A stretch of DNA of 64,000 nt from Verrucomicrobiota bacterium (GCA_029573725.1 JAKQDQ010000042.1:777-64776), one strand, 5' to 3'; shown: positions 36,757-63,286, counted from the stretch's first letter. The notes: generated from the sequence alone by a model not told the origin. Made by a program: numbers and translations.

Positions 36757-36762
36757 AACCCT

Positions 36763-37629: not shown

Positions 37630-37632
37630 GCT

Positions 37633-40076: not shown

Positions 40077-40149
40077 ATCTTCTTTTTGTCGCAGCGGACG
40101 TGAGTCCGCTTATTTGTTCATTTCGCACTCCGCGCTCCGAATTCCGCAC

Positions 40150-42813: not shown

Positions 42814-42901
42814 GCCGCTTCGTGGCTCACCGTCGCCGTGAACGATATCCACCTTGAGCATGGCGTAAGAACGGAAGTTTTGGCACGCTGCGGATTGAGC
42901 C

Positions 42902-43453: not shown

Positions 43454-43513
43454 TTCACTCGCGCCGTCCCGCTTTTCAAGCAGTCGAGACCGGTGAACAC
43501 CAATCGTCCTTCG

Positions 43514-43726
43514 TCACCATCGTCGTTTTGGACCAACGTAGATCGCGTTACACCGACAACGCGCCTGGAATGCTTTTGGAATCGGCGACCGCATCTTGAT
43601 CTCGGCCACGACACGGCATTGTTGGCAAATCAGCAACGCCACGAAATCTTCGGATTCGTAACCGACACTGACCTTCACGCGGGAAGTTTCACACGCAGCC
43701 ACGTAAACTCGTTCTTCGCTGGCCAT
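43514..43726 (-). CDS. small zinc-ribbon-like hypothetical protein
   Basis: 70 aa with a non-degenerate composition and CQQC...CRC cysteine pairs. Its third-position GC is lower than the host's. Confidence 0.35.
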   Translation of the reverse strand: MASEERVYVAACETSRVKVSVGYESEDFVALLICQQCRVVAEIKMRSPIPKAFQARCRCNAIYVGPKRRW

Positions 43727-44742: not shown

Positions 44743-44886
44743 GGGGCGACACACAACACATATTGTGCGTTCGTTCCCTCGTGCCTCGGTCACACCTTTA
44801 TTCCTGATCGCACCGACACTCCTCACTCGTGAGCCGCTTCGGTGCGGGAATAAAGGGTCGCACAATATGGCGTTGTGTGTAGCCCC
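44743..44886. repeat. 144-bp nested imperfect inverted repeat (IR2)
   Basis: GGGGCGACACACAACACATATTGTGCG (44743-44769) pairs with CGCACAATATGGCGTTGTGTGTAGCCCC (44859-44886). Inner stems are ACCTTTATTCC/GGAATAAAGGGT, CGCACCGA/TCGGTGCG and CTCAC/GTGAG. Confidence 0.8.
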
Positions 44887-45370
44887 GCTGCTTCACTGTC
44901 ACGCTGATTGCTTCCTGGATTCCCCATCCGGCACGCGACTGCCCTCGTCGCGTGGCAATCACCGCGCCAGCTCGCAGGCATCCTTCGCGCCAACACCGCC
45001 GCTCCGCATGATGGCCAGTGCGGCACGCACCAGCCGGGTCTGCTTGCCCCAATAGCTCGCCGGTACGGCTCGCACCCCCACCCAACCCCAATGCTCGACC
45101 CCTTCCGTCCCCAAGGGGTCGTCGCGCGCAAAGTAGTTTGCTCGCTTCGCTGGTTGGATCGCGTGGCTGCAGGATGCAACCACGCGCCAATGGAAGGCCG
45201 GACTCCGGCTTTTCAGGTCCGGCTTTTTCTGCTCCGCGTTTCTCTCCATCGCCCTCCCGGCCTCGCCGCAAGACCAGCCCGCCCACTCGTGGCGACCTTC
45301 TGAAGACCACTTCCACGGGGGAGGGCTGGCGGCTCGGCGTTGTCGTGAAGGGCGACGGACAGAAGACGCA

Positions 45371-45949
45371 ATGCAGAGCAGAAAAAAAAAGACCATGAAA
45401 ACAAATAAACAAAACTATGAAGGGGCTCGGGAGCAGATCCGCAATACTCAGCAGACCAACACCAGCACAGTTCGACAAGAAGTTGATGCAGTGGTGGCCA
45501 AGTTTTCCACCCCGACCGGTGGAGACGTGACCGCGCAGGACATCGCGGAGCAGAAAGCCCGTGATGCGAAGCAAGCCAAGGTTGATAATCGCTTGCCGAT
45601 TGATTCCCAGGCACGGAAGCAGAACCGGACGCTTCCGACCCCGAAGGTGTTGAACCTTTTGTTGACCACGTTGCCGGACGTTTACCGCGCCGCCGAGGTT
45701 GTCGGGAAATGGGTTTGGGTGACGTTCAAGGAGCAACCCGCCGCCGAGATTCGGCAGCACTTGGCCCAGCTTGGCTTCCACTGGAATCGTGAGCGGCAGA
45801 CATGGCAGCACCCCTGCGGCCAGTTCCGCTTGAGCAGCAACAACGACCCGCACGAGAAGTATTCCAGTTACTACCCCGCCCGGATTCGTCGCAGCACCAA
45901 AGCACAGACCCCGGAGATGATGGCCAGTGGCGCTGCCACCGCCGCGTGA
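45371..45949 (+). CDS. hypothetical protein (phage/plasmid accessory type)
   Basis: 192 aa. The C-terminal segment VGKWVWVTFKEQPAAEIRQHLAQLGFHWNRERQTWQH resembles a small domain I have seen on plasmid/phage accessory proteins. An alternative start is at 45395. Confidence 0.5.
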   Translation: MQSRKKKTMKTNKQNYEGAREQIRNTQQTNTSTVRQEVDAVVAKFSTPTGGDVTAQDIAEQKARDAKQAKVDNRLPIDSQARKQNRTLPTPKVLNLLLTTLPDVYRAAEVVGKWVWVTFKEQPAAEIRQHLAQLGFHWNRERQTWQHPCGQFRLSSNNDPHEKYSSYYPARIRRSTKAQTPEMMASGAATAA

Positions 45950-45993
45950 TTCAACCGGGGCGGGCAGCACCCGCCCCCAACTCTCCCAAGATT

Positions 45994-46209
45994 ATGACGA
46001 ACTCCTACACCCTCCGAGCCGGTGACCTTGTCGAGTATGCCGGCCAGCCGTGCCGCGTGGTTCGCGTGAGCGAATCCGCCGCCCTTGTCGCCGTGATTCA
46101 AAAGCCGCGCACCATCACCCCGCGCTTTGGCAAGCCGGTGACCATTCAACCACGCCCCAAGCTGGAGCGCATTTCCCCAAACTCCGAAATCCCCATCCTT
46201 AACCGCTAA
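45994..46209 (+). CDS. small hypothetical protein
   Basis: 71 aa (MTNSYTLRAGDLVEYAGQPCRVVRV...), SH3/KOW-like beta pattern, tightly spaced with its neighbours. Confidence 0.4.
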   Translation: MTNSYTLRAGDLVEYAGQPCRVVRVSESAALVAVIQKPRTITPRFGKPVTIQPRPKLERISPNSEIPILNR

Positions 46210-46213
46210 CACT

Positions 46214-46675
46214 ATGAACCAAGACCAGAATATCAATCCAGAGGAAGCGCTCCGCGCCGTTTTCGGCGAACCGCAGCAGATCGCCGACGGCATCACCGCG
46301 TTCGGCCCGGTCGTTTACAGTTACACCCGCGCGCAGGCCGTCGCCGACGGCGTGCAAGTCGAAGTCACCAAGACCGCGCAGGAAGCCGGAATCCGCTTCC
46401 CGGTTTTTCTCACCCGCACCGTATTCGACGCCTACGTTGCCGTGCCGCCCGACGTGACCGGCCAAGACGAAGCCGGGCGACTCTGGGACATCGTCTGGAT
46501 GTTGCGCTTTGCCATCCAGCGCACCAGCCGCGGAGTTGCGCGCCTGCCGTTCGCGCTCTACGTGCGCAACGACAACCGCGCCGCCAAGCTCATCAAGTTG
46601 GTCGCCGTCGCTGGCCCGCTCGACATTGACGACCCATCGCCCGCCATCACCGTGATGTTGCCGGACGAAGATTGA
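46214..46675 (+). CDS. hypothetical protein (possibly DUF6573-like plasmid/phage accessory protein)
   Basis: 153 aa with a clean, non-degenerate sequence. The family assignment is from memory only. Confidence 0.5.
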   Translation: MNQDQNINPEEALRAVFGEPQQIADGITAFGPVVYSYTRAQAVADGVQVEVTKTAQEAGIRFPVFLTRTVFDAYVAVPPDVTGQDEAGRLWDIVWMLRFAIQRTSRGVARLPFALYVRNDNRAAKLIKLVAVAGPLDIDDPSPAITVMLPDED

Positions 46676-46721
46676 AACCACCACAGGCCGCGCTCCGCTC
46701 CGGGGCGCGGCCCTTTGACCT

Positions 46722-47057
46722 ATGACTTCCCAATCATTTCTTGGATTCGAGCAGCAGACCCGCGACGCCGAACTCGCCGCCGCCAATGCCAAGCTACAGG
46801 CCAAGCTCGCGGAGCAGGCCCAACGCGCCATCCGCAAGCGACAGGAGGAAATGGCCAAGAACACCCGCCGATGGAAGCGCGAGGAAGCCACGCGCAAGCG
46901 GAACGACATCCTCGTTGCTCAGTGCGGCATCAATTGGTATTCGCGCCGCCGCGATGCGGGCATCTACTGGACGCACTGCAAGACTTGCGGCCAGTTGCTC
47001 CACTACACCGACGACAAAAACGCGAAGCCCCAAGTTTGCGCCGGTCGCAAATCGTAG
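46722..47057 (+). CDS. coiled-coil + zinc-ribbon hypothetical protein
   Basis: 111 aa with a charged helical N-terminus and C-terminal C..W...HCKTCG...C cysteines. Confidence 0.45.
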   Translation: MTSQSFLGFEQQTRDAELAAANAKLQAKLAEQAQRAIRKRQEEMAKNTRRWKREEATRKRNDILVAQCGINWYSRRRDAGIYWTHCKTCGQLLHYTDDKNAKPQVCAGRKS

Positions 47058-47132
47058 CCCCCCCATATTTTCCAGCCTGCCGCGATGACACCCTCGCGGC
47101 TGGAGGCAGGTGCGGCTCGCACAAAAATTTTT

Positions 47133-47172
47133 CGCCTGACGGCTCGCGCTCGTCAGGCGAATCCATTTTTTC
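47133..47172. terminator. bidirectional rho-independent terminator between the plus-strand island and terL
   Basis: CGCCTGACG (47133-47141) pairs with CGTCAGGCG (47151-47159). ATTTTTT follows on the plus strand and AAAAATTTTT precedes it, which gives a T-run on the minus strand. Confidence 0.55.
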
Positions 47173-47233
47173 GGCTGGGTCTTGCGCCGACCCAGACCCG
47201 CGCCAAAGGGTGGCAACCCTCTGGGCACTGTGC

Positions 47234-48631
47234 TCACAGCCCCCGCAACTTCCGCTCGCTGATCGTTCGGGTTTTCGTCGCCACCAAGTAGCGGAGACAG
47301 TCCGCGCAGTCATCGCCCCCAACGCCATCCTCGTCCGCGTCCACCTTGAGCACGTCCTCGGGCCGGTTTGGATCGTGTTGGAGTGCCGGCAACGTCTCAA
47401 TCAGCCGCCCGCAACGGGCGTGAATGAATAGTGTCGGCCTGATGCCTCCCTCAATATCACCTAACCCTTGCATAACTTCTGCCCAACCGTTCACCCGGTC
47501 GGTGTTGGCTGGACGCAGCGTGATACCCTGTTTCGCATATTGCGCGGCAATCGTCGTCCCGTCCGATTGCCGGCTGAAAACATCCGCGCCGGCCACGAAC
47601 CGTTTCAGGTCCGCCAGCGTCAATGCCCGGTCGCCAATCTTGTGCCGCGCGAGCATGGCCTTGATCGCCGCCGCGTGCCGTTGCGGCAGCCACAACCGCT
47701 CCGCGTGTTCATCCACGACATAGGTGTTTCCATCGCCATCGCGGCAGCCGAGCAGGCAGACCGTGTAATGGACGTGGCCGTAGTCAAAGGCACAGAACCA
47801 CTCCACGGCCCGCGCATCGTCGAAGTCCTCGACGACGTGAACGTCGCGCCGGAACTGCGTGAAGAACTGACCGGCGGCAATGTCCCAATCACCATCGAGC
47901 CAGGCGCGGCGTTGCCAGCCCGTCAGACCTTCCAGAATCCGCCGGTATTCCGGGTTGTTGAACGCATTGTCGTCGACGCGGGCCGGAATGAAGCGCGTTT
48001 CCGTCTCGCGCCGCTCCAGCATCGGCTGGACGAATCGCTTGCGATACCACGCATGACCAACGCCGCCGGGATTCGTGGTGGAGTAGATGCGCGGACGCCA
48101 GTTTGGCTTGGACGACCGGCAGCACGTCGTAATGTCTTGAAACTTCCGGCTCGTCAGTGTGGTTGCTTCCTCGATCCCAATGACATCGTATTCCAAGCCC
48201 AGGTAGGCATCCACGTCCCGGTCATTCTGGAAATGCCCGGCAATGATGCGCGAACCATTCGCGAAGGTGAGGATGCCGCGGAACGCGCTGAACTCATGTG
48301 GCAGCCGGTTGAACAGCCGTTGCCGGAGATCCTCGAAGTGCTCCAGGTTCGCTTTGCCCACTTTGCGGAGCAGCAGACATTTCAATCCTGGCACACGCTG
48401 ACAATCGTCGGCGCCGACTTGGGACAACATCCAGTGCGACTTGCCGCCGCCACGAGCGCCACCGTAACCGACTTCCGTCGGCCCGTCGGGGCGGTCGCAC
48501 AATCGGGCGGCAGCACTGGCAACCAGTTGACGCTCTTGCAACCACAATTTCGCGGCCACGAAGTTGCGGGTTTGATCCTCGGGACAGCCCGCCGCAATCG
48601 CGGCGTTCAGGAAAATTTCACGCTCGTTCAT
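47234..48631 (-). CDS. terL: terminase large subunit
   Basis: 465 aa with Walker A-like GGARGGGKS, Walker B LLLRKVG..., the ATPase coupling motif GIEEAT and a C-terminal RNaseH-like nuclease region (FDYGH..., DADEDG). Confidence 0.9.
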   Translation of the reverse strand: MNEREIFLNAAIAAGCPEDQTRNFVAAKLWLQERQLVASAAARLCDRPDGPTEVGYGGARGGGKSHWMLSQVGADDCQRVPGLKCLLLRKVGKANLEHFEDLRQRLFNRLPHEFSAFRGILTFANGSRIIAGHFQNDRDVDAYLGLEYDVIGIEEATTLTSRKFQDITTCCRSSKPNWRPRIYSTTNPGGVGHAWYRKRFVQPMLERRETETRFIPARVDDNAFNNPEYRRILEGLTGWQRRAWLDGDWDIAAGQFFTQFRRDVHVVEDFDDARAVEWFCAFDYGHVHYTVCLLGCRDGDGNTYVVDEHAERLWLPQRHAAAIKAMLARHKIGDRALTLADLKRFVAGADVFSRQSDGTTIAAQYAKQGITLRPANTDRVNGWAEVMQGLGDIEGGIRPTLFIHARCGRLIETLPALQHDPNRPEDVLKVDADEDGVGGDDCADCLRYLVATKTRTISERKLRGL

Positions 48632-49224
48632 GGCTTCGCCTCCTGGACGTCAATCACCGGTTGCTCCGGGACAGCTTCCACCTTCGCGCTATACGCCTTG
48701 CGGATGGCAATCTCCCAATCCACATCAATCGTCGCCTTCACCGTGGTGTTGACCTCCTTCACTTCTGTCGGCATCCCTGCCGCCAGCCGACCGAGCTTGG
48801 TTGCCAGTTCCAGCACGCGGGCGATGCCTTCCAGCGTGCCGCACTTGGCTTTGTTCTTTTCCCACCGCGCCAACATTTCATCCGCCAGCGCGATTAGCTT
48901 CTTGTGCCGCTGCCACTCGGCGACTTTCACGGCTTCATGCACCTTGTTCCAATCGACCGCCTTTTCGAGCGCCAACCCTTCGATGGCTTCGCGCTCGATG
49001 GTCGCCAGGTGCGCGGCGTGAGCTTGCACCCGTGCCGGCCAGTCGAACCGCCGCGACCAACGTTCGATCATGGTCTTGGACTTGCCGTGCTGGACGGCCA
49101 CGACCGCCAGCGAGCGTTGTGCGCCAAGTTCTAAGTAGGTTTTGAAAGCCGCGAACGCCTTGTTGCTCTCGCGGGGTTGCTGTTCAAATGACAACGCTGC
49201 TGTTTCTTGCTTGCTCGATTTCAT
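48628..49224 (-). CDS. terS: terminase small subunit (HTH type)
   Basis: The start MKSSKQ at 49224 and N-terminal AFAAFKTYLELGAQRSLAVVAVQHGKSKTMIERWSRRFDW match the HTH pattern of small terminases. Its stop overlaps the terL start. Confidence 0.65.
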   Translation of the reverse strand: MKSSKQETAALSFEQQPRESNKAFAAFKTYLELGAQRSLAVVAVQHGKSKTMIERWSRRFDWPARVQAHAAHLATIEREAIEGLALEKAVDWNKVHEAVKVAEWQRHKKLIALADEMLARWEKNKAKCGTLEGIARVLELATKLGRLAAGMPTEVKEVNTTVKATIDVDWEIAIRKAYSAKVEAVPEQPVIDVQEAKP

Positions 49225-49378
49225 GGTCTTTTTTTCCGCTGGCCCGTCCGGCTCGGACCGTCTCGCCTTAACGGCAGTAGTGGAATGGCAACCCGACCCA
49301 AGAAGGGTTGCCTTCCCGACTGCCTGCTTTGCTGGTGTAGTCCACTTTCTATTTAAGGGATGTTGGACTGTTGGACTG

Positions 49379-50416
49379 CTACTCGTTTCCGACCCAATAC
49401 AGCCCGCCGCCACTCTTGATTAAACCGTTGGCCACAAGCCGTTTGAGGTAGTTTGCCACGCTGCTCCGGCTCATCTTGAACTCGCTTTTGGCGGCTTCGA
49501 CGATTTTGGCGAAGGTTTTGCCCTCCGAACTCATCACGGCATCCACAAATTCCTTGTCCGAACACACCTTGTTTTTGGACTGTGGCCGGCGCAGTGCTTC
49601 CGGGTTCAGGTCGCTGGCGACCTTCATCAGGGGATACTCCCAGCCGACCACGAACTCCGGCAGTTGCGGCAGGTTGCGGAGGATGCTGGTGACGGTGAAG
49701 TGATCCGGCTCTTCGTGCGGCGTCAGCACGACGATGGTGTCGGGGTCGCGCGCCCACGCGCCTGCACCGCTCATGCGGTCCATCGCCGACTTCGCCGTGC
49801 TATCGCCCTTGGCAAAATGGTGCGCGACCACGATGGCCGCGCCGGTCTTCTGCGCCATTGCTTCAAACTCGTTCATCAGGCTGGCGATCTCGCCGTTGGC
49901 GTTCTCGTCGCGGTTGCCCAGCACCTTGTAAGCGGGGTCGAGGATGATCAGACCGAACTGATGCTTGGCGAGTTGTTCCTCCAGCTTGGGCCGCAGCAGG
50001 GTGATGTCGGCATTGTGCCCGCGCAGATTCCAAATGTGCAGCGTCTTGCCCATCGCCTTGCACTCGGGCCGCGCCCCGCACAACGCATTGATGCGTTGCG
50101 CCACCGCCCAGGTGTGCAGCTCGAAATTGATATACACCACCGGCAGCTTGGCGCATTGCCGTCCCCACCACGGTTGCCCGCTCGCCACGGACAACGCCAG
50201 GTCCAGCAGACACCACGACTTGTTGCTCTTGCTCGTCCCGCCGAGGATCATCTTGCACCCTTGGTGCAGGATGCCCTCGATGATGAGCGGCGGCGGTGGC
50301 GTCGCCACGGCGCACAACTGCTCCAGCGTCAGAATGTCCGGCAGCGGCGGCGCGACCGCGCCCAGGTCCACCGCCGGGTCAACCTGCTCAGTCGGGGAAT
50401 AGGTTTTGATCTCCAT
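49379..50416 (-). CDS. RepA/DnaB-like replicative helicase (AAA_25) with C-terminal wHTH
   Basis: Walker A ILGGTSKSNKS, Walker B LIILDP and a RecA-like core, with a C-terminal MarR-like helix (VANYLKRLVANGLIKSGG). Confidence 0.7.
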   Translation of the reverse strand: MEIKTYSPTEQVDPAVDLGAVAPPLPDILTLEQLCAVATPPPPLIIEGILHQGCKMILGGTSKSNKSWCLLDLALSVASGQPWWGRQCAKLPVVYINFELHTWAVAQRINALCGARPECKAMGKTLHIWNLRGHNADITLLRPKLEEQLAKHQFGLIILDPAYKVLGNRDENANGEIASLMNEFEAMAQKTGAAIVVAHHFAKGDSTAKSAMDRMSGAGAWARDPDTIVVLTPHEEPDHFTVTSILRNLPQLPEFVVGWEYPLMKVASDLNPEALRRPQSKNKVCSDKEFVDAVMSSEGKTFAKIVEAAKSEFKMSRSSVANYLKRLVANGLIKSGGGLYWVGNE

Positions 50417-50417
50417 G

Positions 50418-51407
50418 CTAATCCTTGAGCCAGACGATGCGTTGCAGTTTTCCGTCCCGGTATGCGCCGGGCACGCGCACCGGCTGGGAATAGGTGAAAA
50501 GTTTCGGGTCGCAGCCGAACACGGTCAGCACGGCCTTGAGTCGCGCCTCGATCCGCCTGTCGCGGGGTGCGTCCAGCCAGCCGTGGAGCGACTTCCCGGC
50601 GGTATCAATGATGGCGTGCAGGTTGAAATGCAGCCGGCGATTCAGATAGGCGAAGATCGCGCCAACTTCATCCTTCGCCAGCGTGTCCGACTCCACGACC
50701 ATGAACCGCGTGCCGTTGCAGTTCGCGTTGCTGCGCTGAAAACTCCCCGGCTTGAACGATGAGCCGCAGGTGAAGTTGCCCATCACCGGCCCGATTTGAT
50801 ACCAGTCGGCTATCGGCCGGAAATGCGTCCGATGTTCCGGCCTGCCCGAACTGTAAATGTCGCCGATCCACACATGACAATGCGCCGGCCAGAGCTTGAG
50901 CCAGGTGCGGAACTGGTCTTCGGCGTCGCGCTCCGCTACTAACAGCGGCGAGTCCTCCAATATCTGCGCGAACGGCCAGTGGAAATTCTCGAACAACTCC
51001 GGTTTGAACCGCTCCGCCGTCACCGTCAGCGTTTCCAAAATCAACTGCTCGCCCGCGTCGCGGCCCTCGGACTTGGCGCGAGCCTGGACAACCTCACGCG
51101 GCAGCACCGTGCCGCTCGCTTGCAACACGTCACCGCTCCGCAAAACTTTTCCGCCCGGTAACGTCAGCGCCCACGGCGACGCGTTCAACCCGCGCCGCAA
51201 TCGCCGGTTGGCTTCCGCCACCGCCGGGGCGCACGAGGCGTGGAAACAGTAAATCGTCGGCGCTCCATCCACGTTGATCCGGCAGTCTTTCTTGCCGGTC
51301 TTGTGCGTGTGCAGCGACTCACCCGGACAGCGGCAGAAGCCGCTGACCTCGCTCTGCCAGTCCACCGCGCCGACGATGCTGGCGGCAATGTGCCGCGGGT
51401 CAGTCAT
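50418..51407 (-). CDS. putative DNA primase (Zn-finger + AEP/Prim-Pol-like core)
   Basis: The start MTDPRH at 51407 is followed by an N-terminal CPG...H.H...C...CFHASC zinc motif. The acidic VVESD and SLHGW motifs resemble AEP motifs I and II. It lies directly upstream of the helicase. Confidence 0.5.
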   Translation of the reverse strand: MTDPRHIAASIVGAVDWQSEVSGFCRCPGESLHTHKTGKKDCRINVDGAPTIYCFHASCAPAVAEANRRLRRGLNASPWALTLPGGKVLRSGDVLQASGTVLPREVVQARAKSEGRDAGEQLILETLTVTAERFKPELFENFHWPFAQILEDSPLLVAERDAEDQFRTWLKLWPAHCHVWIGDIYSSGRPEHRTHFRPIADWYQIGPVMGNFTCGSSFKPGSFQRSNANCNGTRFMVVESDTLAKDEVGAIFAYLNRRLHFNLHAIIDTAGKSLHGWLDAPRDRRIEARLKAVLTVFGCDPKLFTYSQPVRVPGAYRDGKLQRIVWLKD

Positions 51408-51792
51408 GGTGACCGCCCACCAGTTGCGGCGTGACTTTGCGATGCCACTCGTCGTGGCACGGCTTGCACAGATAATCCTTCGGCCACCGGTCCGCCTCGT
51501 CCTTGCCGAAGATCGCCTGCGGCGACCAATGATGTTCTTCCGCGCCCCGAGCCCCACATCGGGCGCAGCGCGGTTGATCCATGCGCTCGACGACGCGGAC
51601 GAGCGACAAGTCCACGCCGTTGGTGGCGAGGGTTTCCTTTGGAATCCAATAGCCACCGTTTTTGCTCGCCGTCCACCAACGACATTCCAGACACCACCAG
51701 CCAAAATGCTCGGCGGCGCTGGCACTCAGCCGACAGGAAATCTCCTGGCGGGTGTCACGCGCACAACGCGGGCAACGGCGGTTTCGTATCAT
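51400..51792 (-). CDS. HNH-type zinc-finger nuclease-like protein
   Basis: CPRC...CLEC...CARCG cysteine pairs and EEHHWSP...CKPCHDEWH (HNH-like His-Me finger). Confidence 0.5.
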   Translation of the reverse strand: MIRNRRCPRCARDTRQEISCRLSASAAEHFGWWCLECRWWTASKNGGYWIPKETLATNGVDLSLVRVVERMDQPRCARCGARGAEEHHWSPQAIFGKDEADRWPKDYLCKPCHDEWHRKVTPQLVGGHHD

Positions 51793-51813
51793 GGTGGCCG
51801 GTGCGGTTCGCAC

Positions 51814-52020
51814 TCAGAACTTCAATTCCGGTTCGCAGTGTTCCTTGACCGCCCGCAGAAAATCAGCGGGCCGTTTCAAGACCTCCTTCGCGACGTGCGG
51901 CGGCAGATGGAGCAGATTCTTCGCGCCGTATTTGTCCGCGATGAATTGCAGCACCATGCCCTCGACACGCGGATCACCGCCGAGCAGGCGGTGCAACCGT
52001 TCCACCGTCTGCACCGACAA
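51814..52020 (-). CDS. small hypothetical protein (TTG/GTG start)
   Basis: Only the 3' end of the 383-aa shadow ORF looks real (LSVQTVERLHRLLGG...KYGAKNLLHLPPHVAKEVLKRPADFLRAVKEH). It follows REP-like repeat copy A. Confidence 0.3.
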   Translation of the reverse strand: MSVQTVERLHRLLGGDPRVEGMVLQFIADKYGAKNLLHLPPHVAKEVLKRPADFLRAVKEHCEPELKF

Positions 52021-54863: not shown

Positions 54864-55058
54864 TCAGCAGTCGAAGATTTCAAACGTGGGTTTGCCGAGC
54901 GCATCGGCGATGCGCTGCTTGAGCCTGGCATCCGGCGCGATGCGTCCGGTTTCGACGCGAGAGATTTCGATCTCCCTTGTTCCGACTCGGTCGGCGAGTT
55001 GAAGCTGGGTTAAGCCCTTCAACACCCGCGCCGCCTTCATTCGATGATTCACAGTCAT
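54864..55058 (-). CDS. XRE-family (Cro/CI-type) HTH regulator
   Basis: 64 aa with KAARVLKGLTQLQLADRVGTREIEISRVETG, a canonical HTH_3 pattern. Confidence 0.75.
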   Translation of the reverse strand: MTVNHRMKAARVLKGLTQLQLADRVGTREIEISRVETGRIAPDARLKQRIADALGKPTFEIFDC

Positions 55059-55127
55059 TTCCGGTTTGTTGGTTACGGTGGCGAACCGCTCGTCACGTCT
55101 CTTTTCCCCGGAAATCGCGGAATCAGG

Positions 55128-55161
55128 GCATGAAAATGGGGTTAGCAGTCACGCTAACCCC
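55128..55161 (-). terminator. putative terminator separating the WYL-linked genes from the XRE operon
   Basis: GGGGTTAGC (55138-55146) pairs with GCTAACCCC (55153-55161). On the minus strand ATTTTCAT follows. Confidence 0.45.
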
Positions 55162-55205
55162 TGTGCGGGAATGAATTGTGAGAAATCAGGAAATCGCGGA
55201 GGAAA

Positions 55206-56378
55206 TCACGAAACGGCGGCACGCAGCGCGTCGGCAAGATTGGAACACTGTGCCTCCCAATTTTCAGGATCGAGCATTTCTAATTCTTCGACGGCGTCGC
55301 GGATCAGCGATGGGAAATCCACCTCGCGTTCCGCGCCGGAGGCGAGCCGCTTGGCAAACTCGACGCCGGCCTGCCCCTTGATGGCTTTTCGCCAGCGCAC
55401 GAACTCGGCGAGCGCGACATACTCCTTCCCGCGTTTGCGCCACGCCGCAACCTTGGTGCGCAACGTGGAATCTTTCATGTCCAGATCGCGGCTGGCTTTG
55501 GCGACATCCCCACTGGCGAGAATCGCCAGGAACAAATCGCGCGCCTCGCGGTCAATCTTCGCCGCGAAGCCGAACAGTCCGTCGCCGTGCATCTGTTCGA
55601 TGCGCGCCTTGGCCGCGCTCAAATCCAGCTTTTGTTTCGCCACCAGTTCCATGTGCCGGTCAATCCGTTCCACGGTCTTGACCAGTCCCGGCCCGGAGGC
55701 CAGCCGTTGATCAAACGCGGCGAGCACAGCATCAATTTGCTCGTGCAACGTGAACGCGCCCGCGCCGGAAACCGCCAGCCATCGGGACAGGCCAAGCAAA
55801 AGAAAACCGTGGCGCACTTGCATCGCGCCGACAGTTTTCGAGTGATGCGCTTCCGTCGGCGTCAGCAGAACGAACGGCCCGCCCACACTTGCGACCAGTT
55901 GTTCCGACTCACCCGCCAGCGCCGCCGCATCGTGCGGAAGATGAAGAAACACTGGCAGCTTCGCCGCGCCTCGCGCCGCGATGCGCGTGGATTGCTCGCC
56001 GTTGGCACTTCCAACCGGCGACTGGAATTTCAAGGCGCGTCGCACCGCTTCGCCGAGTTTCACCACATCCACCGCCCACACGAGAACGTCGGTCGGTTGG
56101 AGTTCAATGGGTTCGCAGCTCCCGCCATCGCACTCGCACACGGCGGCCAGACGGTCGGGCGCGTGCATCACCACTCGATGCCGGCAATCGCAGGGAAACC
56201 GGTTCGTGCAGGGATGACTTGAGCTTTGCTCGCCGTTCGGATTCAGGAAAACACGCGCCGCGTCAAACTCGCTGCCGAGTTCGCGCCGCCATTCCGCCAG
56301 CACTGCTGCCGCAGTGGGCAGGGCTTCAAGACTTGTCCACAATCCCGGTTTCCGTTTCATCTGTTTCGTTGTCGTCAT
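55206..56378 (-). CDS. hypothetical protein with Cys cluster and C-terminal Fis-like HTH
   Basis: About 380-390 aa. It has HPCTNRFPCDCRH...CECDGGSC cysteines and an HTH-like segment near the C-terminus, GDVAKASRDLDMKDSTLRTKV. Its start overlaps the upstream gene by 15-53 nt. Confidence 0.5.
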   Translation of the reverse strand: MTTTKQMKRKPGLWTSLEALPTAAAVLAEWRRELGSEFDAARVFLNPNGEQSSSHPCTNRFPCDCRHRVVMHAPDRLAAVCECDGGSCEPIELQPTDVLVWAVDVVKLGEAVRRALKFQSPVGSANGEQSTRIAARGAAKLPVFLHLPHDAAALAGESEQLVASVGGPFVLLTPTEAHHSKTVGAMQVRHGFLLLGLSRWLAVSGAGAFTLHEQIDAVLAAFDQRLASGPGLVKTVERIDRHMELVAKQKLDLSAAKARIEQMHGDGLFGFAAKIDREARDLFLAILASGDVAKASRDLDMKDSTLRTKVAAWRKRGKEYVALAEFVRWRKAIKGQAGVEFAKRLASGAEREVDFPSLIRDAVEELEMLDPENWEAQCSNLADALRAAVS

Positions 56379-57522
56379 CTTCGCCGATGAAGCCGCGTTC
56401 TTTCAGCCAGTTTTCGATGATGATGCCATCGTCATCGCGTCCGTATTGCGCCTTGTTCGATGGAATGATCGTCACGCGGCGGGGTTTCTTTGATCCGGCG
56501 AATTTGATTTCAAACGTCGCCCGCTTGATGCGTTCCGGGTCTTCCGGCCAGAACAACTTTTCCTTTTCCACCAGCCCGTAGATGTCATCCGAGGCGCGCG
56601 TCACCCGCTGCCACGGTTTGCCGCCGAACAGGAATTGCACTTCCTTGAGCGTGACGCTCTCCATCCCCTCGATGTCCAGGCACGCAAGACAGCCCCGCCC
56701 CATGAGCAGCGGCTTGAGCCGGTATTTGCCCGTGCCCGGAAAAAATTCCTCCTTGCCGAACAGATGCAAGCCAAATGCCTTTCGGAACAATTCCAGTTCC
56801 CGCTTGCCGCAGCAATTCATACGGAGTTCGCCTTGCATCGTGTCATACACCACCACGTCATGCTTCTGCGGGCGGTAAAACACGCTCGACGATTCGCCTT
56901 CCACCATCGCGCTTTCTCGCTTGCATGGCAGACCGTGCCGCACCAGAAACCAACACTCGCCTTCCTTGGGAAATGGAATGACTTTGCATCCGCGCCCGCG
57001 CTTGCTTTTGGCATACCAGTCATCCAGCCGCGCTTCCAGCGCCTCAATTTGCTCCTTGCCCGGCGGCGTGAACTTGGGCGGCTCATCTCCCTCGCAGACG
57101 AAGTATTCAAACGAACGCGGGCGCGTGAGTTGATGTTCGTTGTGAAGTTCTTCGAGCAGCAGCCGGTTCAGCAGCAGGGTTTGCACAGCCACGTCCGCCG
57201 GCGACGGCTTGTCACCAACCTCCAGCGTGAACTTGCGTGGCCCTTGCGCTTCCAGAATCGCTTCCATCGCTTCATCTGTCGCCATTTCGTTCACGAGGTT
57301 GAGCGATTCCACGAGGTCGCGGGGCATGTCGGGATCGGGGTCGAGAAACACCGCCGCCAGCTTTTCCAAATCCACCGGCCCATCGGCGACGTCGGCGGGC
57401 AGCGTCACGCCGCGCGTGGCGAGGTATTCCTTTGCTGGCGTCAGCCATGTCACCAGACTGGCGGGCCGGATTTTTCCCAAGATGTCAGGATTAGTGAAGC
57501 GTCGGGTGTTCAGGTTTGGCAT
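56326..57522 (-). CDS. hypothetical protein (no recognisable family)
   Basis: 398 aa, clean non-degenerate sequence with an acidic tail. It is the first gene downstream of the WYL regulator on the same strand. Confidence 0.55.
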   Translation of the reverse strand: MPNLNTRRFTNPDILGKIRPASLVTWLTPAKEYLATRGVTLPADVADGPVDLEKLAAVFLDPDPDMPRDLVESLNLVNEMATDEAMEAILEAQGPRKFTLEVGDKPSPADVAVQTLLLNRLLLEELHNEHQLTRPRSFEYFVCEGDEPPKFTPPGKEQIEALEARLDDWYAKSKRGRGCKVIPFPKEGECWFLVRHGLPCKRESAMVEGESSSVFYRPQKHDVVVYDTMQGELRMNCCGKRELELFRKAFGLHLFGKEEFFPGTGKYRLKPLLMGRGCLACLDIEGMESVTLKEVQFLFGGKPWQRVTRASDDIYGLVEKEKLFWPEDPERIKRATFEIKFAGSKKPRRVTIIPSNKAQYGRDDDGIIIENWLKERGFIGEDDDNETDETETGIVDKS

Positions 57523-57652
57523 GTTTGTTTGGTCGGTTGCTTTCTGATTTCTTCAATCGTTCACCCCGCAGGATAGCCGGAGGGGTCTGCCAAATGCTGT
57601 CAGACCCCACGAAATAAATCAGAAAGTTGTCCTCCGTCTTTTCACGGCCAGT

Positions 57653-58666
57653 TCACCTGTCCTGCCTCATCTTCGCGTATCGCTGGTTCAATTCCGCCGT
57701 GACCTTCTCTATACGCGCGACCAGCGTTTGCGGTGCGATGACGGTCGCGTGCGTGCCCCAGCTTAACGCCCAGCGCTCCACTTCCTCGACGTTGTTCAGC
57801 CGCATCCGCAGCCTCATTTCTCCACCGGGCAGTTCGTCCACCGTCTGACTCCAATGCCAGCGCCGACCGCGCAGCAGGTCTGCCGACCATGAATCAAATT
57901 CGATGACGACTTCAAATTCATCATCCGGCTTCCCGGTGAACACGCTGAACGACCCGCGCAAGTGCCGGTCGAGATTGAAGTCCTTCGGCGCGGGAAATTT
58001 CTCATCCGTCACTTCCAGCGTCTTCATGCGTGTCAGCACAAACCCCCGGATGGCCTGCCGCGCCAGGTCATGCGCGAACAGATACCAGCGGTTGTCCACG
58101 CACGCGACGTGGTAGGGGCGCACGCTGCGACGCTCCGGCTTTTGCGCCCCCAGCTTGCGGTATTGAAACCGCACAACCCGCCGCTCCCGCACCGCCTTGA
58201 GCAATCCCTGAAAAATTTCCAGATCGGTTTCCTCCGGCGCGAACGGACGGAATGAAAACGCCCCGTCTAGCCCGCCAAAGCTGAATGACGATTCCTTGTC
58301 TAGTTGCCCCGTCAGTTTGCGGAAAGAACCTTCCAGCAGATGTTCAAACGGCGTTCCTTGATACTGGACAATCGCCTTGTGCGCCACCATCAGCGCGAAC
58401 AAATCCGCTTCCGTCACCGGCACGGATGGAAACCGGTCCACTTTTTCTGAATAGAAATATCCGTAGCGTTTCTGGTGATATTCGATCGGCAGGTTCAACC
58501 GGCACTTCATGAAATCAATGTCGCGCTTGATGGTTCGCGACGACACTTCCGTTGCCTCCGCCAGCGAGGAACAGTTCGGGAAAGCCTCGCCCTGCAATTT
58601 TTCATGGATTAACAGCATCCGCTCCAATGGCGGCCTCGAATGGAGTTGTTCGCTGACTTTTGGCAT
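57653..58666 (-). CDS. HTH-WYL-WCX transcriptional regulator (BrxR/CapW-like architecture)
   Basis: N-terminal wHTH (LAEATEVSSRTIKRDIDFM), a central WYL domain (VRFQYRK...RSVRPYHVACVDNRWYLFAHD) and a C-terminal WCX-like extension. The start is at 58666. Confidence 0.85.
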   Translation of the reverse strand: MPKVSEQLHSRPPLERMLLIHEKLQGEAFPNCSSLAEATEVSSRTIKRDIDFMKCRLNLPIEYHQKRYGYFYSEKVDRFPSVPVTEADLFALMVAHKAIVQYQGTPFEHLLEGSFRKLTGQLDKESSFSFGGLDGAFSFRPFAPEETDLEIFQGLLKAVRERRVVRFQYRKLGAQKPERRSVRPYHVACVDNRWYLFAHDLARQAIRGFVLTRMKTLEVTDEKFPAPKDFNLDRHLRGSFSVFTGKPDDEFEVVIEFDSWSADLLRGRRWHWSQTVDELPGGEMRLRMRLNNVEEVERWALSWGTHATVIAPQTLVARIEKVTAELNQRYAKMRQDR

Positions 58667-58739
58667 GGCGTGAAGATTTTTCAAAATTCTGCTCCCCGGT
58701 GACAATGGATGTCAAACCCCCTTCTGTTAAGATGGGTGC

Positions 58740-60035
58740 ATGAATTTGAACCTTCATCGCGTTCAACCCATGGCAATTCCCTTGAAACTTGACCATTTTC
58801 GGCTTCGGCGGCAATCGCAGTTGGAACAGGAACTTGCCAGCCGCCCGCTGTTCAAAAAGGTGGACGGCATGGCGGGCAAGGAATGGCGGATCAGCCAGTT
58901 GAAGCAGATTGTCAGCGGCAACCTGTTCGTGCCCGAAGGCACGATTCCCCTTTTGGACGCGGCGGTGTTGCGCATGAAGACAGTCATGCGCTTGTCGTAT
59001 CCCGTTCGAGTCTTTCTGCGACCCGATTCAGGCAACGTAACCGCCTGCCTTGCGTTTCTGGGCGCGGACACTTTGAACATTGCCGTCGCCCCCGGCCTGA
59101 TTCGGGGCGATTCGCCAGCCGCGCTTGCCTACCACTTGGCGACCGCCGCGTTCCACGGTTTGCAGCACTACCCGCAATACCTTGGGCTGTTGCTCACGCT
59201 GCGTGCGCCATTCGATTTGGAAGGCCGGCTCAAGGCGTATGAGATTTTGCGGCTCAACCGCTACGCCGCGAATTGTTTCGCGGTCGTTTGTTGTGACAGC
59301 CTGGAGATTGCCACCCGGCACGGCTTTTCAAGGGTCACCGGCATCCCGGTCACCGGAAGCAAACCGGCTTTGAATCTCGACGTTCTCGCCGGGCACGCGA
59401 TTCAGAACACCGCGTTGAACGGCGGCAATGTGCTCGACGACTATTCGCCGTTGGATCACTACGAACCGATTCTGCCCCTTGTGCTCCGCCGCTTCTTGGA
59501 GAGCGAACCGTATCGCGCCTGTCGCGGGGAAAGCGGAGGGACGCCCCGCGACCAGTTCGAGGCCGAGATTTTGGAACTCGACCGCCAGGCGTATCCGCTC
59601 ACGGAAACCATCCCCAAAATCCATGGCGAATTTGCGGCGATTGCGTCGTTGCTGGCCGCGCATTGGGTGATGGAATCGTGCGGGCCGGTGACGCAGCGGC
59701 GCGAGGAAATCCTGCTTGAGTCATTCGAGTTGGAGCGGAAGCAGCTCGACGAAATCGCCGCACAAACCGGCTGGCGGCGCGAAGGCGAAACCAGCACGAA
59801 GCAGCTTCTCGACGCGCTGTCCGGTGGCCGCGATTGGAAAAACATTCATTGCGTCCAAATAATCCGCACCGCGTTCCTGATTGCCGCCGAGGAACACCAG
59901 GGCAAGCTGCCCGACAAGGTGAAGGCGGCGTTTGTCGAAATCGGTCGGATATGCCGCCTTGAGCCGAACGAATGTAGCGCCGTGTGCGAAGTCTTGATGG
60001 AGGAGGCAATCAAGAAATCAGGCCAGACCGAATGA
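58740..60035 (+). CDS. hypothetical protein, divergent from the WYL regulator
   Basis: 431 aa (alternative start at 58770). Helical, no catalytic motif recognised. It is the first gene of the plus-strand defence-type operon. Confidence 0.5.
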   Translation: MNLNLHRVQPMAIPLKLDHFRLRRQSQLEQELASRPLFKKVDGMAGKEWRISQLKQIVSGNLFVPEGTIPLLDAAVLRMKTVMRLSYPVRVFLRPDSGNVTACLAFLGADTLNIAVAPGLIRGDSPAALAYHLATAAFHGLQHYPQYLGLLLTLRAPFDLEGRLKAYEILRLNRYAANCFAVVCCDSLEIATRHGFSRVTGIPVTGSKPALNLDVLAGHAIQNTALNGGNVLDDYSPLDHYEPILPLVLRRFLESEPYRACRGESGGTPRDQFEAEILELDRQAYPLTETIPKIHGEFAAIASLLAAHWVMESCGPVTQRREEILLESFELERKQLDEIAAQTGWRREGETSTKQLLDALSGGRDWKNIHCVQIIRTAFLIAAEEHQGKLPDKVKAAFVEIGRICRLEPNECSAVCEVLMEEAIKKSGQTE

Positions 60036-60211
60036 AACACAGGTGCGTCAACATTCCCAGAAACGACTGCTCTCCGGTGAATCCGCTGGGACGCGAACTC
60101 GCGACGCGGACACGCTGGCAGCCCGTCATGTTGACGCCGCCGATCCAGATTACATTTGTCAGTTTTCCGTGCCGCGATTATCATACACGACAAAGTCAGT
60201 CAGTTCATTCG

Positions 60212-61518
60212 ATGAACCGGATCAGTTTCTTAGACCTCTTTTGCGGATGCGGTGGGTTCAGCCTCGGAATGGAGCGGGCTGGACTTTACTGTTTGGCAGC
60301 CATTGATTTCAACCCGGAAGCCGTCGCTGTCTTCAAAGCCAATTTCCCGCATGTAACACAGGCATTGGAGCGCGACCTCACCGCTTTCTCTCCACGCGAA
60401 CTGGCGAGCTTGATTGAAACCGAAACCGTGGACGTGATTGTTGGAGGCCCGCCCTGTCAGGGATTTTCCACGGTGCGGCAGCGTGATGGCGCAAACAGTG
60501 GGCCGCGCATGGTTGAGGACAAGCGACGCCATTTGTATCAGGAATTTTTGCGCTACGTTGAATTCTTCCGACCGAAGGTGTTCGTGATGGAAAACGTGTT
60601 GGGAATCAAGTCGGCAGCCGGCGGCAAATATTTTACGCGCGTGCAGAAGGAGGCGCGAGCCATCGGCTACCGCGTCCACTCCCAGGTTGAAAAGGCGATT
60701 GAATTGGGCGTGCCGCAAAAACGCCAGCGTCAGTTGATCGTCGGCACTCGCCTTGACCTGCCCGACTATTTCCCCGGCCAGTTGAAGCCCGCACCTCGCG
60801 CTGTCGAAAAGCCGACGCTCGGCGAGGCGATTTGCGACCTTCCCCCCGTTCGTGCGGGCGGTGGCGAGGAAGAAACCGACTACGACATGCCCGGCGCATG
60901 GCCTATGTCGCCAAATATGGTCGACGTTATCTCTACGAGACGCTTGAAGTCCAACGGGCGTCGAAATTGACGGCACATCGCGCGCGCCCGCACAGCGAAC
61001 GTGATCTGCGCGATTTTGCCCGGTTGCACGAAGGCGAACACTGCGCCGAGGCGATGAAGCGCGGCGAGAAATTCGAGTTCCCCTACGACAAGGAGACGTT
61101 CAAGGATCGCTATACCCGCCAACATCGCAACGAAGCCTGCTCCACCATCGTCGCGCATTTGAGCAAGGACGGACTGATGTTCATCCATCCGACACAAAAC
61201 CGCTCGCTCACGCCGCGCGAGGCTGCCCGTGTGCAGAGTTTCCCTGACTGGTTTCAATTTCCGGTTGCCCGCACTCATCAATTCCGCGTCATTGGCAATG
61301 CAGTCCCGCCATTGGTTGCGGAGGCCATCGGATACGTCGCGAAATCCTACCTGGAGAAAACTATGAAAACACAAAAAGCAGTCCATTTCGGTTTGTCGCC
61401 GCTACCGTCCAGCCAGAAGGAAGCTGTCCAATGGCTTCTCGGCTTGGTGACGCGGCAGAGGGCAAAGCATTACAGCAATTGTCAGCCGCCGATTTTAAGC
61501 GTGGCTGGTATTCCGTAG
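60212..61518 (+). pseudogene. DNA (cytosine-5)-methyltransferase, split by a frameshift near 60880-60905
   Basis: Motifs I (DLFCGCGGFSLG), IV (GGPPCQGFS), VI (ENV) and VIII (QKRQR) are in the frame of ORF 59984..60970. Motifs IX and X (LTPREAARVQSFPDWFQF, GNAVPPLVAEAIG) are in the frame of ORF 60832..61518. The two frames overlap over 60832-60970. Confidence 0.75.
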
Positions 61519-61783
61519 GGTTTTTGTATCCCGGCCTCCACCCGGACAGCGCACTTGAGCACGGAAAGGAGTTGTGCAACGACGCCGAAGATTTTCCCGA
61601 AGTCCGCAAAGTTGAACCGCGTTTGCTCGCGCCATACTACGTTGACAGCGGTTGGCCTCGCCGTCCTCGCGTTGCTCCTGTTAATTTTCTGCCCTCGCCG
61701 CTAGACTGCGTTGCATCCCGCTCCACTCTACGTGCATCCATTTGGGATGGCGCAAACGACGTTTTCTTTGCATCATGCGCGCC

Positions 61784-63286
61784 ATGTCGCGCACTTCGTC
61801 CTCAGAATACGAGACAGTTCCACCCGAGCCAGCCGCGCTCGTGGAATCGCTGCGCGCGTTTGGATACGAACTTTCAACAGCCTTGGCCGACCTTGCCGAT
61901 AACAGCCTTTTCCACCATTCACGGCACATCACCGTTCATTTTCACTGGGCCGGGGAAAATTCTGCAATCGCCTTGGCGGATGACGGCGACGGGATGGACG
62001 AGCGCACATTGGTAAATGCGATGCGGCTTGGCAGCCGCAACCCACGCGCGCCGCGCGATCCAGGAGATTTTGGGCGGTTCGGTTTGGGGCTGAAGACCGC
62101 CTCGTTTTCCCAATGTCGCCGCGTGACGGTTTTCACGAAGCAGCACCGTAAGGAAACCCTGATTCGTTGCTGGGACTTGGATCACGTTGCCGAAACCGGC
62201 GAATGGCAACTGCTTCGAACTTCGTCGGCGCTTGCCGCGAGGCTGGCAGAAAAACTCGCCGATACGAAGCAGGGCACAGTTGTCATTTGGGAAAAACTGG
62301 ATCGGCTGACTGCCGACACCAAGACCGAGAACGATGCCGACGAGGATGCCTTCTTACGACGCGCGGAACAGGTCGGCGACCATTTCTCGGCAGTCTTCCA
62401 CCGTTTCATGAATGGAAATCGTGCTGTCGCTTTCTCCCTGAACGGCACAGCCATCCAGCCTTGGGATCCGTTCCTTGTTGATGAAGCCGCCACCCAGCGG
62501 CTTCCATTGGAGCGCCTTCGTTTTCAGGGGCATGTCGTCGAGGTCGAGCCGTTCATCCTTCCGCATCTTTCCAAGCTGGATATTTCCGCTCATCGCACCG
62601 CTGCAGGCTTGCGCGGATGGAACGCACACCAGGGATTTTACATTTACCGCAATCGCCGCCTGCTTGTTCCCGGTGACTGGCTCGGCATCAAAGGCTGGCG
62701 TCAGGAGGAACATTACAAGCTCGCCCGCATCCAGGTTGATTTGCCTAACGCACTCGATCACGAATGGGAAATTGACGTGACTAAATCGCGTGCAAGGCCG
62801 CCTGAAAAACTTCGGCGTGAACTCGTTCGCATCGGTGAAAGCACACGCAGCGTGGCAAAGCGTGTTTACTCGCATCGTGGCGCGAAGCTCGTTCCCGCCG
62901 AGGGACAGGAGCGCGTGTTCCTTTGGGAACAGACGGCGAAGCACAACCAGGTGTCCTACCGCGTCAACCGCGATCACCCACTGGTGAAACAAGTTCGCGC
63001 GGCTTGTTCCGACGCGCCGAAGTTCAGCGCGCTGATCCGGCTCATTGAGGAAACGATTCCCGTTCCACTCATCACCATCACGGATCGGGAAAAGCCAGAC
63101 CAGACCATCGGCCCGTTTGAAACCTCGAAAGAGTCGGAAATTCTTGAAGTCATGCGGCAGGTATTCGCCTCGCTCCGCGCCAGCGGACTGTCGCGCAGGG
63201 AAGCCTTGTTGCGCCTTGCCCACTTCGAGCCGTTTCCGCGCTTTCCAGAATTGCTCCAAACCATCCAGGAGGAAGATGAACCATGA
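61784..63286 (+). CDS. GHKL (HATPase_c_3) MORC-like ATPase
   Basis: N-box LADLADNS, G1 box DDGDGM and G2 box GRFGLGLKTAS of the Bergerat fold. About 500 aa. The start is at 61784 or 61775. Confidence 0.75.
   Translation: MSRTSSSEYETVPPEPAALVESLRAFGYELSTALADLADNSLFHHSRHITVHFHWAGENSAIALADDGDGMDERTLVNAMRLGSRNPRAPRDPGDFGRFGLGLKTASFSQCRRVTVFTKQHRKETLIRCWDLDHVAETGEWQLLRTSSALAARLAEKLADTKQGTVVIWEKLDRLTADTKTENDADEDAFLRRAEQVGDHFSAVFHRFMNGNRAVAFSLNGTAIQPWDPFLVDEAATQRLPLERLRFQGHVVEVEPFILPHLSKLDISAHRTAAGLRGWNAHQGFYIYRNRRLLVPGDWLGIKGWRQEEHYKLARIQVDLPNALDHEWEIDVTKSRARPPEKLRRELVRIGESTRSVAKRVYSHRGAKLVPAEGQERVFLWEQTAKHNQVSYRVNRDHPLVKQVRAACSDAPKFSALIRLIEETIPVPLITITDREKPDQTIGPFETSKESEILEVMRQVFASLRASGLSRREALLRLAHFEPFPRFPELLQTIQEEDEP

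Follow-up and report, generated by a model that had tools for sequence, protein, structure and literature searches.

Genes A and B, a conserved pair in the repressor-linked cargo slot of temperate elements: a possible Rex-like exclusion or defence module

Introduction

Lambda RexA/RexB and the RexAB-type exclusion systems, which include those of the mycobacteriophages Sbash and CarolAnn, are the closest described counterpart of the locus considered here: two adjacent genes, A and B, that follow a WYL regulator gene in a 64,000-nucleotide (nt) stretch of DNA from a Verrucomicrobiota bacterium (GCA_029573725.1 JAKQDQ010000042.1:777-64776), called the window below. RexA lies in the cI operon, shares the RdgC / IML3-CHL4 fold and has homologues of 337-372 aa in mycobacteriophages (PMC11077077). 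RdgC is an inhibitor of both RecA strand exchange and LexA cleavage, and RexA biases the CI/Cro switch with no need of RexB (PMC11077077). In the P1 prophage of P. putida, a RexAB-type system was found downstream of a CI-like repressor (PMC12894663). A second point of comparison is provided by CapW and CapH/CapP, regulators of immune operons that respond to DNA damage or single-stranded DNA (ssDNA) (PMC11662680; bioRxiv 10.1101/2022.04.27.489752; PMC13228613). CapW-type WYL repressors sense ssDNA (PMC11662680), and CapH/CapP, an XRE helix-turn-helix (HTH) protein together with an ImmA/IrrE-type peptidase, responds to DNA damage (bioRxiv 10.1101/2022.04.27.489752; PMC13228613).

The three genes from which the analysis starts are:

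56326-57522, minus strand: gene A, 398 aa, an open reading frame (ORF)
55206-56378, minus strand: gene B, 390 aa, an ORF with a 53-nt overlap with A
57653-58666, minus strand: HTH-WYL-WCX regulator of the BrxR/CapW type, 337 aa, matched by Pfam HTH_11, WYL and WCX

As in Rex, A and B form a two-gene cassette immediately downstream of a CI/LexA-family repressor, namely a LexA-like S24 gene in 63 loci, with a WYL gene in the window; as in Rex, the cassette is accessory and missing from some related phages. The first protein, A, resembles RexA in being soluble and in its size class (~280-400 aa), and judging from a structure model it may belong to the same RdgC / IML3-CHL4 (CENP-L/N) fold class. 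Unlike RexA, however, A has an additional N-terminal helical domain and no sequence or profile similarity to RexA, and its regulator may be WYL or XRE + M78 rather than CI-type. The A model also matches E. coli RdgC (2owl) and the RdgC-related CENP-N in Foldseek, but RdgC is a solitary chromosomal gene, whereas A is prophage-borne, has an obligate partner gene and lacks a match to the RdgC family PF04381. The regulator architectures of CapW/BrxR and CapH/CapP operons occur directly upstream of A-B; here, though, the commonest regulator is a LexA-like S24 protein and the payload is not a known defence system. With QatABCD, A-B has in common a slot in which a QatC-like protein is also found, and a C-terminal module shared by that protein and the type-2 tails of B. 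In contrast, A and the conserved domain of B show no similarity to any Qat protein, and the window B tail is of type 3. With confidence a little short of even, we read A-B as a Rex-like, damage-regulated module for prophage exclusion or defence, a function that we infer from its position, the type of its regulators, the predicted fold of A and the sharing of a domain.

Results

A and B occur as a conserved pair in many phyla

The earlier note on this DNA, made from the sequence alone, had called A and B unrecognisable, and indeed neither protein gave a match in Pfam, NCBIfam, PHROGs, PADLOC or PDB sequences. A word-indexed search returned 272 homologues of A and 50 of B, all of them unannotated. 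Loci were collected by searching species-representative genomes with an alignment of A (273 hits, 80 loci kept), to which 73 IMG/VR contigs were added. All A-B loci were found by searching with A, and genes in the fetched loci were called heuristically from ORFs, conservation and overlap rules. The kept loci span about 20 phyla, among them Verrucomicrobiota, Planctomycetota, Acidobacteriota, Desulfobacterota, Nitrospirota, Bacteroidota, Chloroflexota, Armatimonadota, Myxococcota, Gammaproteobacteria, Latescibacterota and Zixibacteria. Cultured hosts include Desulfosarcina alkanivorans PL12, D. widdelii PP31, Syntrophus buswellii DM-2, Desulfatitalea alkaliphila and Syntrophorhabdus aromaticivorans UI. 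No tblastn match to A was obtained among 50,697 deposited phage genomes, and none was found in PLSDB plasmids. By exhaustive HMMER search, the A family comprises 2419 clusters at 50% identity (E <= 1e-3), or 773 at E <= 1e-30, and its members are of very uniform length (~390 aa).

In 155 of 158 loci, the next ORF after A matches the hidden Markov model (HMM) of B in its N-terminal domain, the exceptions being mostly truncated contigs; the idea that B is an unrelated gene varying from locus to locus was therefore rejected. Of the 133 non-redundant loci, 125 have B at +1. Natural A-B fusions were found among the top 150 family representatives: P0418 (736 aa), with the B-HMM match at residues 386-603, and P0424 (727 aa), with the match at residues 392-586. 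Because the two genes are almost always adjacent in the order A-B, usually overlap and are sometimes fused, their products almost certainly work as a complex. The earlier note had named linkage of the homologues to each other or to WYL genes as a check on its proposal; the first linkage is essentially always present, the second almost never.

In one Bacteroidota metagenome-assembled genome (L245, ~7.5-19 kb), A-B is part of an ~11-kb element with genes for a Mrr-like nuclease, an unrecognised 427-aa protein, A, B, a D5-type primase-helicase and a serine recombinase. A-B therefore rides satellite-sized integrative elements too.

A-B follows a regulator gene

Flanking ORFs of the 133 non-redundant loci were clustered, and cluster representatives were annotated with Pfam. 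The canonical layout begins with DUF2924, a large serine recombinase, c5, a LexA-like repressor, A and B, and continues with c6, c3 (a weak sigma-70 region 2), c7, a PD-(D/E)XK exonuclease and an AAA_24 ATPase. At position -1 relative to A, a LexA-like S24 repressor (LexA_DNA_bind + Peptidase_S24) is present in 63 loci. A separate pair of XRE and Peptidase_M78 (ImmA/IrrE-type) genes holds this position in three loci (L145, L151, L159), and the two are fused in a fourth (L052). The WYL gene stands there in the window and in its close relative L001 only (2 of 133). In ~13 further loci, c5 takes position -1, with no regulator gene between c5 and A. By analogy with described regulators, all three upstream classes (S24, XRE + M78, WYL) would be of DNA-damage-sensing types. 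The earlier note had proposed a WYL-controlled effector pair. The pair itself turned out to be genuine, conserved and linked, but WYL does not define it: A-B is more aptly seen as a travelling payload whose DNA-damage-sensing regulators are interchangeable.

The S24 stop codon and the A start are separated by a median of 22 nt (range -38 to 92, n = 63), whereas the stop of B and the gene that follows are a median of 238 nt apart. Terminator-like sites were found within 200 nt downstream of B in 40 of 122 loci, versus 12 of 122 in a control window inside A. Inversions of the early genes or of the integrase module leave S24, A and B together (L010, L045, L071, L122 and L149 among others). The tight gap, the terminators and the preservation of the unit in rearrangements indicate that S24-A-B is a transcription unit in the position of lambda cI-rexA-rexB. 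Exact 10-mers common to the regions upstream of S24 and to the B-to-c6 spacers, sought as a test of S24 as master repressor, were uninformative; the LexA-like S24 gene may simply be the immunity repressor of the phage.

Whether A and B could be ordinary replication, repressor or integrase proteins was also considered. No PHROG, Pfam or NCBIfam family matched, and genes of these kinds stand separately in the same loci, which agrees with the earlier view of the pair as something else. An integrase or transposase role for A or B was rejected, as a separate large serine recombinase, with DUF2924, is present in canonical loci.

A-B occupies a variable cargo slot

The slot was surveyed in IMG/VR contigs with the neighbouring gene c3 as anchor. 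For this, an alignment of 6 closer c3 sequences was used, one of 13 diverse sequences being too divergent for locus searching; counts refer to non-redundant c3 loci with >= 4.6 kb upstream of c3. A-B was present in 17 loci (10 with S24, 7 without), and in 7 more A was present with B missed or truncated. S24 was accompanied by other cargo in 11 loci, and 9 contained neither S24 nor A-B. A-B is thus absent or replaced in related phages and therefore accessory, and its place in a cargo slot of temperate elements, which the earlier note had surmised, was borne out by the survey.

The other cargo includes a 327-aa HTH protein (L162, L231) and an unrelated pair of 423 aa and 393 aa (L165). The latter was examined as a distant A-B homologue and rejected (hhalign probability 1-3%). 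In about a dozen contigs (L185:3364-6244, L177:3791-6674 and ~10 similar IMG/VR loci), the slot holds a 262-aa protein and a 700-aa QatC-like protein (PADLOC QatC 1.3e-52, Pfam QueC), and this pair follows a truncated LexA-like HTH gene. Homology to the type-2 tails of B extends over the last 210 aa of the QatC-like protein (E 1.8e-27; 31% identity in a 216-aa alignment). Through this tail type, A-B has a module in common with a defence-family member found in the very same slot.

The body of A is predicted to have an RdgC/CENP-N-like fold

The fold of A was assigned from one AlphaFold2 model (predicted local distance difference test score, pLDDT, 82.6; 54-sequence alignment) and Foldseek. In the model, an N-terminal helical domain (~aa 1-135) precedes a beta-rich body (~aa 139-375). 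Foldseek against PDB returned CENP-N (7r5v_N, E 3.2e-5, probability 1.0) and E. coli RdgC (2owl_A, E 1.7e-4, probability 1.0, 343 aligned columns); these alignments span 320-343 columns, with low TM-scores (0.3-0.4). At fold-class level only, the body (aa 139-375) is predicted to be a DNA clamp of the RdgC/CENP-N type, and a link of A to RexA would be one of fold class and position, not of demonstrated homology.

A link to RdgC or RexA at sequence level was sought with Pfam, PDB-sequence profile search and hhalign, and none was found. The Pfam RdgC model (PF04381) did not match A at E <= 0.1, and 2owl was not found with the A profile among PDB sequences. A contains no transmembrane segment. 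Its identity across phyla is 43-49%, and the conserved residues include D110, R175, H196, G197, R202, D222, R348, R362, D365 and W372; many of the conserved positions are basic.

B combines a conserved domain with a variable tail

Two parts of B are distinguished:

55704-56378, minus strand: conserved N-terminal domain, aa 1 to ~225, with a Cys/His cluster and an alpha/beta domain ('PFILLTPT')
55206-55703, minus strand: clade-specific C-terminal tail, coiled coil and HTH

From its homologues and the gene call in L001, B probably starts at Met7 (56360), giving 384 aa. The overlap with the end of A suggests translational coupling. Only the first ~220 residues are conserved, and B-HMM positions 1-220 were matched in ~96% of loci. 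The Cys cluster described in the earlier note (HPC..FPCDCRH..CECDGGSC) was confirmed in the translation; its conservation is partial (C57 79%, C65 77%, H72 84%, C81 90%). No transmembrane segment was detected in B (maximal Kyte-Doolittle 19-residue mean 1.38). The AlphaFold2 model of B (pLDDT 79.9) had no significant structural match in PDB or BFVD. Searched against PDB sequences, the B profile gave coiled-coil and generic HTH matches only, and the coiled-coil matches fall at profile positions 217-262.

The tail of the window B (type 3; coiled coil and HTH) was seen in 8 of 134 B proteins, all in the clade of the window. For this tail, Foldseek with the B model returned the DNA-binding domains of LysR, NarL and GerE, all at E > 0.1. 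A weak Pfam match to LysR HTH_1 is present in the homologous tail of L059, and none in the window tail itself. A C-terminal HTH in the window B is thus weakly supported by the model helices and the Foldseek matches, and the label 'Fis-like', given to it in the earlier note, is unsupported. The other tail types are an unannotated one of 133 aa (87 loci), the one shared with the QatC-like protein (type 2, 10 loci) and an Rrf2-like winged HTH (6 loci). Taken together, the sequences suggest that the C-terminal tail is swappable and usually DNA-binding-like.

The WYL regulator has a divergent 431-aa partner

Further features in this region are:

58740-60035, plus strand: 431-aa protein, divergent from the WYL gene; also in L001
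58686-58715, minus strand: sigma-70-like promoter candidate (TTGACA-18-CAGAAT; consensus scan, 10/12 matches)

The HTH-WYL-WCX architecture was recovered as described earlier, with Pfam HTH_11 at 7.8e-6, WYL at 3.5e-19 and WCX at 5.7e-12. The last two are far over the Pfam cut-offs and HTH_11 is barely over; the PADLOC WYL model matched at 4.8e-42. The longest ORF of the regulator (57653-58705) starts at TTG 58705. Counted from ATG 58666 the protein has 337 aa, which equals the length of the gene called in L001, a 96% relative. At E <= 1e-20, 1060 homologues were found. In the contexts sampled, a 77%-identical copy is divergent from a Cas3 / type I CRISPR locus, a 72%-identical copy is divergent from an HSP70-TPR gene, and a 71%-identical copy (L242) is divergent from a 431-aa gene, with JetABCD (Wadjet) following on its own strand. 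Copies of 58-59% identity adjoin ARPP-1, Ssp-like and helicase genes. The placement of WYL regulators of this type near defence systems, stated in the earlier note, therefore applies to the relatives of 71-77% identity.

In the window, the 431-aa, methyltransferase and MzaB genes run away from the WYL gene on the other strand. No family in Pfam, NCBIfam, PHROGs or PADLOC matched the 431-aa protein. Aligned end to end with the 431-aa product of L242:5615-6910, it shows 35% identity (E 2e-78), and because of this full-length homology the WYL and 431-aa genes appear to be a mobile regulator pair of defence neighbourhoods. Together they may form a two-component regulator module. The place of the pair in the window is the one taken by Wadjet in L242 and by a LexA-like gene in most A-B loci. 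The promoter candidate sits in the divergent intergenic region between the two genes, which is 89% identical in L001.

The spacers contain hairpins and repeats

The features of the two spacers are:

57540-57626, minus strand: nested inverted repeats in the 130-nt WYL-A spacer (inverted-repeat scan and RNA folding)
57582-57608, minus strand: inner hairpin, GGGGTCTG(C)CA / TGTCAGACCCC, without a T-run
57540-57553 and 57613-57626, minus strand: outer arms, a 14-nt inverted repeat
55138-55161, minus strand: intrinsic-terminator-like hairpin (scan: 10-bp stem, 6 G-C pairs, T-rich tail)

ORF analysis and the scan placed the regulator, A, B, the hairpin and the terminator at the positions given in the earlier note. 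The WYL-A spacer folds as RNA at -44 kcal/mol, better than its shuffles (z = -3.45), and the inner hairpin is kept in L001 while its flanks vary. As a T-run is absent, this hairpin is not a canonical terminator. The nested repeats could act in attenuation, in RNA processing or as an operator; no Rfam match to a known structured RNA was found in the region. The terminator-like hairpin closes the WYL-A-B unit ahead of the XRE early genes.

Three direct repeats of ~18 nt (GAAATCAGGAAATCGCGG-like, 55111-55219) flank the terminator between B and XRE and could be candidate operators. A related CTGATTTC core is also present in the WYL-A spacer. A shared operator of the CTGATTTC type in the two spacers was rejected, as the motif is not enriched window-wide (5 found vs 2.0 expected).

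The element that carries A-B in the window

The surrounding genes referred to here are:

32146-33297: phosphofructokinase, host gene
33480-34160: Zn-peptidase, host gene
54864-55058, minus strand: XRE/Cro-like gene, 64 aa (Pfam HTH_3 8.9e-11; PHROGs)

Host genes stop near 34.2 kb, and a minus-strand element extends from ~34.7 kb (34745-52000). Its genes are, in order, head-tail adaptor, major head protein, scaffold protein, portal, TerL and TerS, followed by primase-helicase, exonuclease, RusA-like resolvase, an HTH_17 gene, the XRE gene, B, A and WYL. Tail genes and an integrase are not visible in the part of the element inside the window, and the element could be either a truncated prophage or a satellite-like one that forms capsids. 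The XRE gene opens the early operon downstream of B (HTH_17, RusA-like, exonuclease, primase-helicase), and the order A-B-XRE-HTH_17 recurs in L001, L002 and L052. On the opposite strand, between the packaging and head genes, lie a gene for an SOS-response-associated peptidase (SRAP; 42902-43453, plus strand) and a DUF6573 gene (46214-46675, plus strand).

Beyond WYL, the plus strand carries the 431-aa gene, a C5 DNA methyltransferase and an MzaB-like ATPase. The methyltransferase (59984-61518, plus strand) consists of two overlapping ORFs of 328 aa and 228 aa, and is one gene of about 600 aa in L001; the split may be a frameshift or a pseudogene. The MzaB-like GHKL ATPase (61742-63286, plus strand) was matched by PADLOC MzaB at 4.8e-109 and by NCBIfam MzaB with 435 bits, which is under the 850-bit cut-off. 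In L001, the MzaB-like gene lies within a larger island with NERD/helicase genes.

Discussion

If A-B is a Rex-like exclusion or defence module, its action can be pictured as follows. The regulator would keep A-B low in the lysogen, and the level would rise on DNA damage or in response to ssDNA, for example during infection or induction. A dimer of A would clamp DNA or replication/recombination intermediates, and bound B would act on the DNA via its tail, blocking the replication or transcription of the incoming phage. Unlike RexB, B would do so without a membrane channel. In the window, the LexA-type regulator would have been replaced by the WYL and 431-aa pair that elsewhere heads Wadjet. 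A more far-reaching proposal is that A-B is an undescribed, widespread anti-phage/exclusion system, in which a clamp of the RdgC/RexA class and a soluble Zn-cluster partner with interchangeable DNA-targeting tails are gated by the damage sensor of the element (LexA-, CapH/CapP- or CapW/BrxR-type); this we regard as possible and hold with greater reserve.

Several observations weigh against an exclusion or defence role. All A-B loci examined are inside temperate elements or at their edges, and no independent enrichment of A-B in chromosomal defence islands was found. No model of PADLOC-DB v2 matches A or B of the window, nor the canonical A and B of L044, and B has no recognisable effector or catalytic motif. 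The TM-scores of A against RdgC are low (0.34/0.42), which places the link at fold-class level. As for RexA, the profile of A (A1) showed no similarity to the lambda protein in hhalign (probability 0.1%), and the 50 Foldseek matches listed for A do not include 8TWQ, the crystal structure of RexA. RexB is a 4-TM (four transmembrane segments) inner-membrane protein, whereas B, of 390 aa, is soluble and combines a Cys/His cluster with a DNA-binding-like tail. Finally, a gene transcribed along with a repressor may work for the switch of the phage itself rather than for defence; RexA does both.

The strongest alternative, although we consider it unlikely, is the following: A-B could tune the element's own decision between lysogeny and lysis. 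A may damp RecA filaments and the RecA-stimulated cleavage of the repressor, as RdgC does, or bind the repressor or its operators, as RexA does. The HTH tail of B would target the complex to the control region, and derepression after damage would feed back on induction. Such a role fits the co-transcription of A-B with damage-sensing repressors, its position nearly always between repressor and early genes, and the RdgC-class fold predicted for A, given the activities of RdgC and RexA on RecA, LexA and CI/Cro (PMC11077077). The tails of B are DNA-binding-like and clade-specific, as expected of operator-specific factors. However, A-B is missing from related phages that have the same early genes, or its place is taken by other cargo such as the QatC-like protein, so A-B is not part of a core switch. 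The WYL regulator of the window comes from a clade found at the head of defence operons, and A-B also occurs at the outer end of prophages, transcribed away from the early region (L054, L057, L071).

A and B might instead be the first genes of an ordinary replication/recombination transcript, for instance a factor that binds DNA ends or forks and its loader. In most loci, early genes on the same strand do follow B (exonuclease, AAA_24 ATPase, helicases, primase-helicases), RdgC-class proteins act at forks and in recombination, and A is unusually well conserved for proteins compared across phyla. Yet the spacing ties A-B to the repressor (22 nt) and not to the early genes (238 nt, with frequent terminators), and inverted arrangements keep A-B with the repressor while the early genes are divergent. 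Around half of the related phages do without A-B. Neither protein has a PHROG family, and A is unmatched in the deposited phage genomes. We therefore consider an early pair of this kind improbable.

That WYL, A and B form a dedicated three-gene system is more doubtful still as a general architecture. In the window the three genes share one orientation behind a single predicted promoter, and a terminator follows B; L001 keeps this arrangement, and in L242 the same WYL clade precedes JetABCD. The presence of WYL in only 2 of 133 loci, both close relatives, nevertheless largely refutes the general form. WYL travels with the divergent 431-aa gene and not with A-B, and WYL and A are set apart by 130 nt of structured spacer, unlike S24 and A with their tight junctions. 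An addiction or toxin-antitoxin-like stabilisation module, suggested by two overlapping, obligately paired genes at prophage ends and by the HicAB genes, the TAC-like toxin with MqsA-like antitoxin and SecB, or the PIN protein that adjoin them in some loci, is very improbable, since both proteins are large (~390 aa), neither resembles a known toxin or antitoxin, and A-B fusions exist, which is unusual for such a pair.

With A and B, two new protein families are defined, each with a set of conserved residues. If A-B is indeed a Rex-like exclusion or defence module, B would be a partner protein of no known fold with modular tails, one of which it has in common with a QatC-like enzyme. The wiring of one payload to three DNA-damage sensors would amount to a natural experiment on the regulation of an immune or lysogeny module. 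The Rex paradigm would be extended past membrane-channel effectors and past Proteobacteria and Actinobacteria. Repressor-linked cassettes of the RexA fold would then be general in temperate phages of environmental phyla (Desulfobacterota, Acidobacteriota, Planctomycetota, Verrucomicrobiota, Nitrospirota, Chloroflexota and others) and not a peculiarity of lambda.

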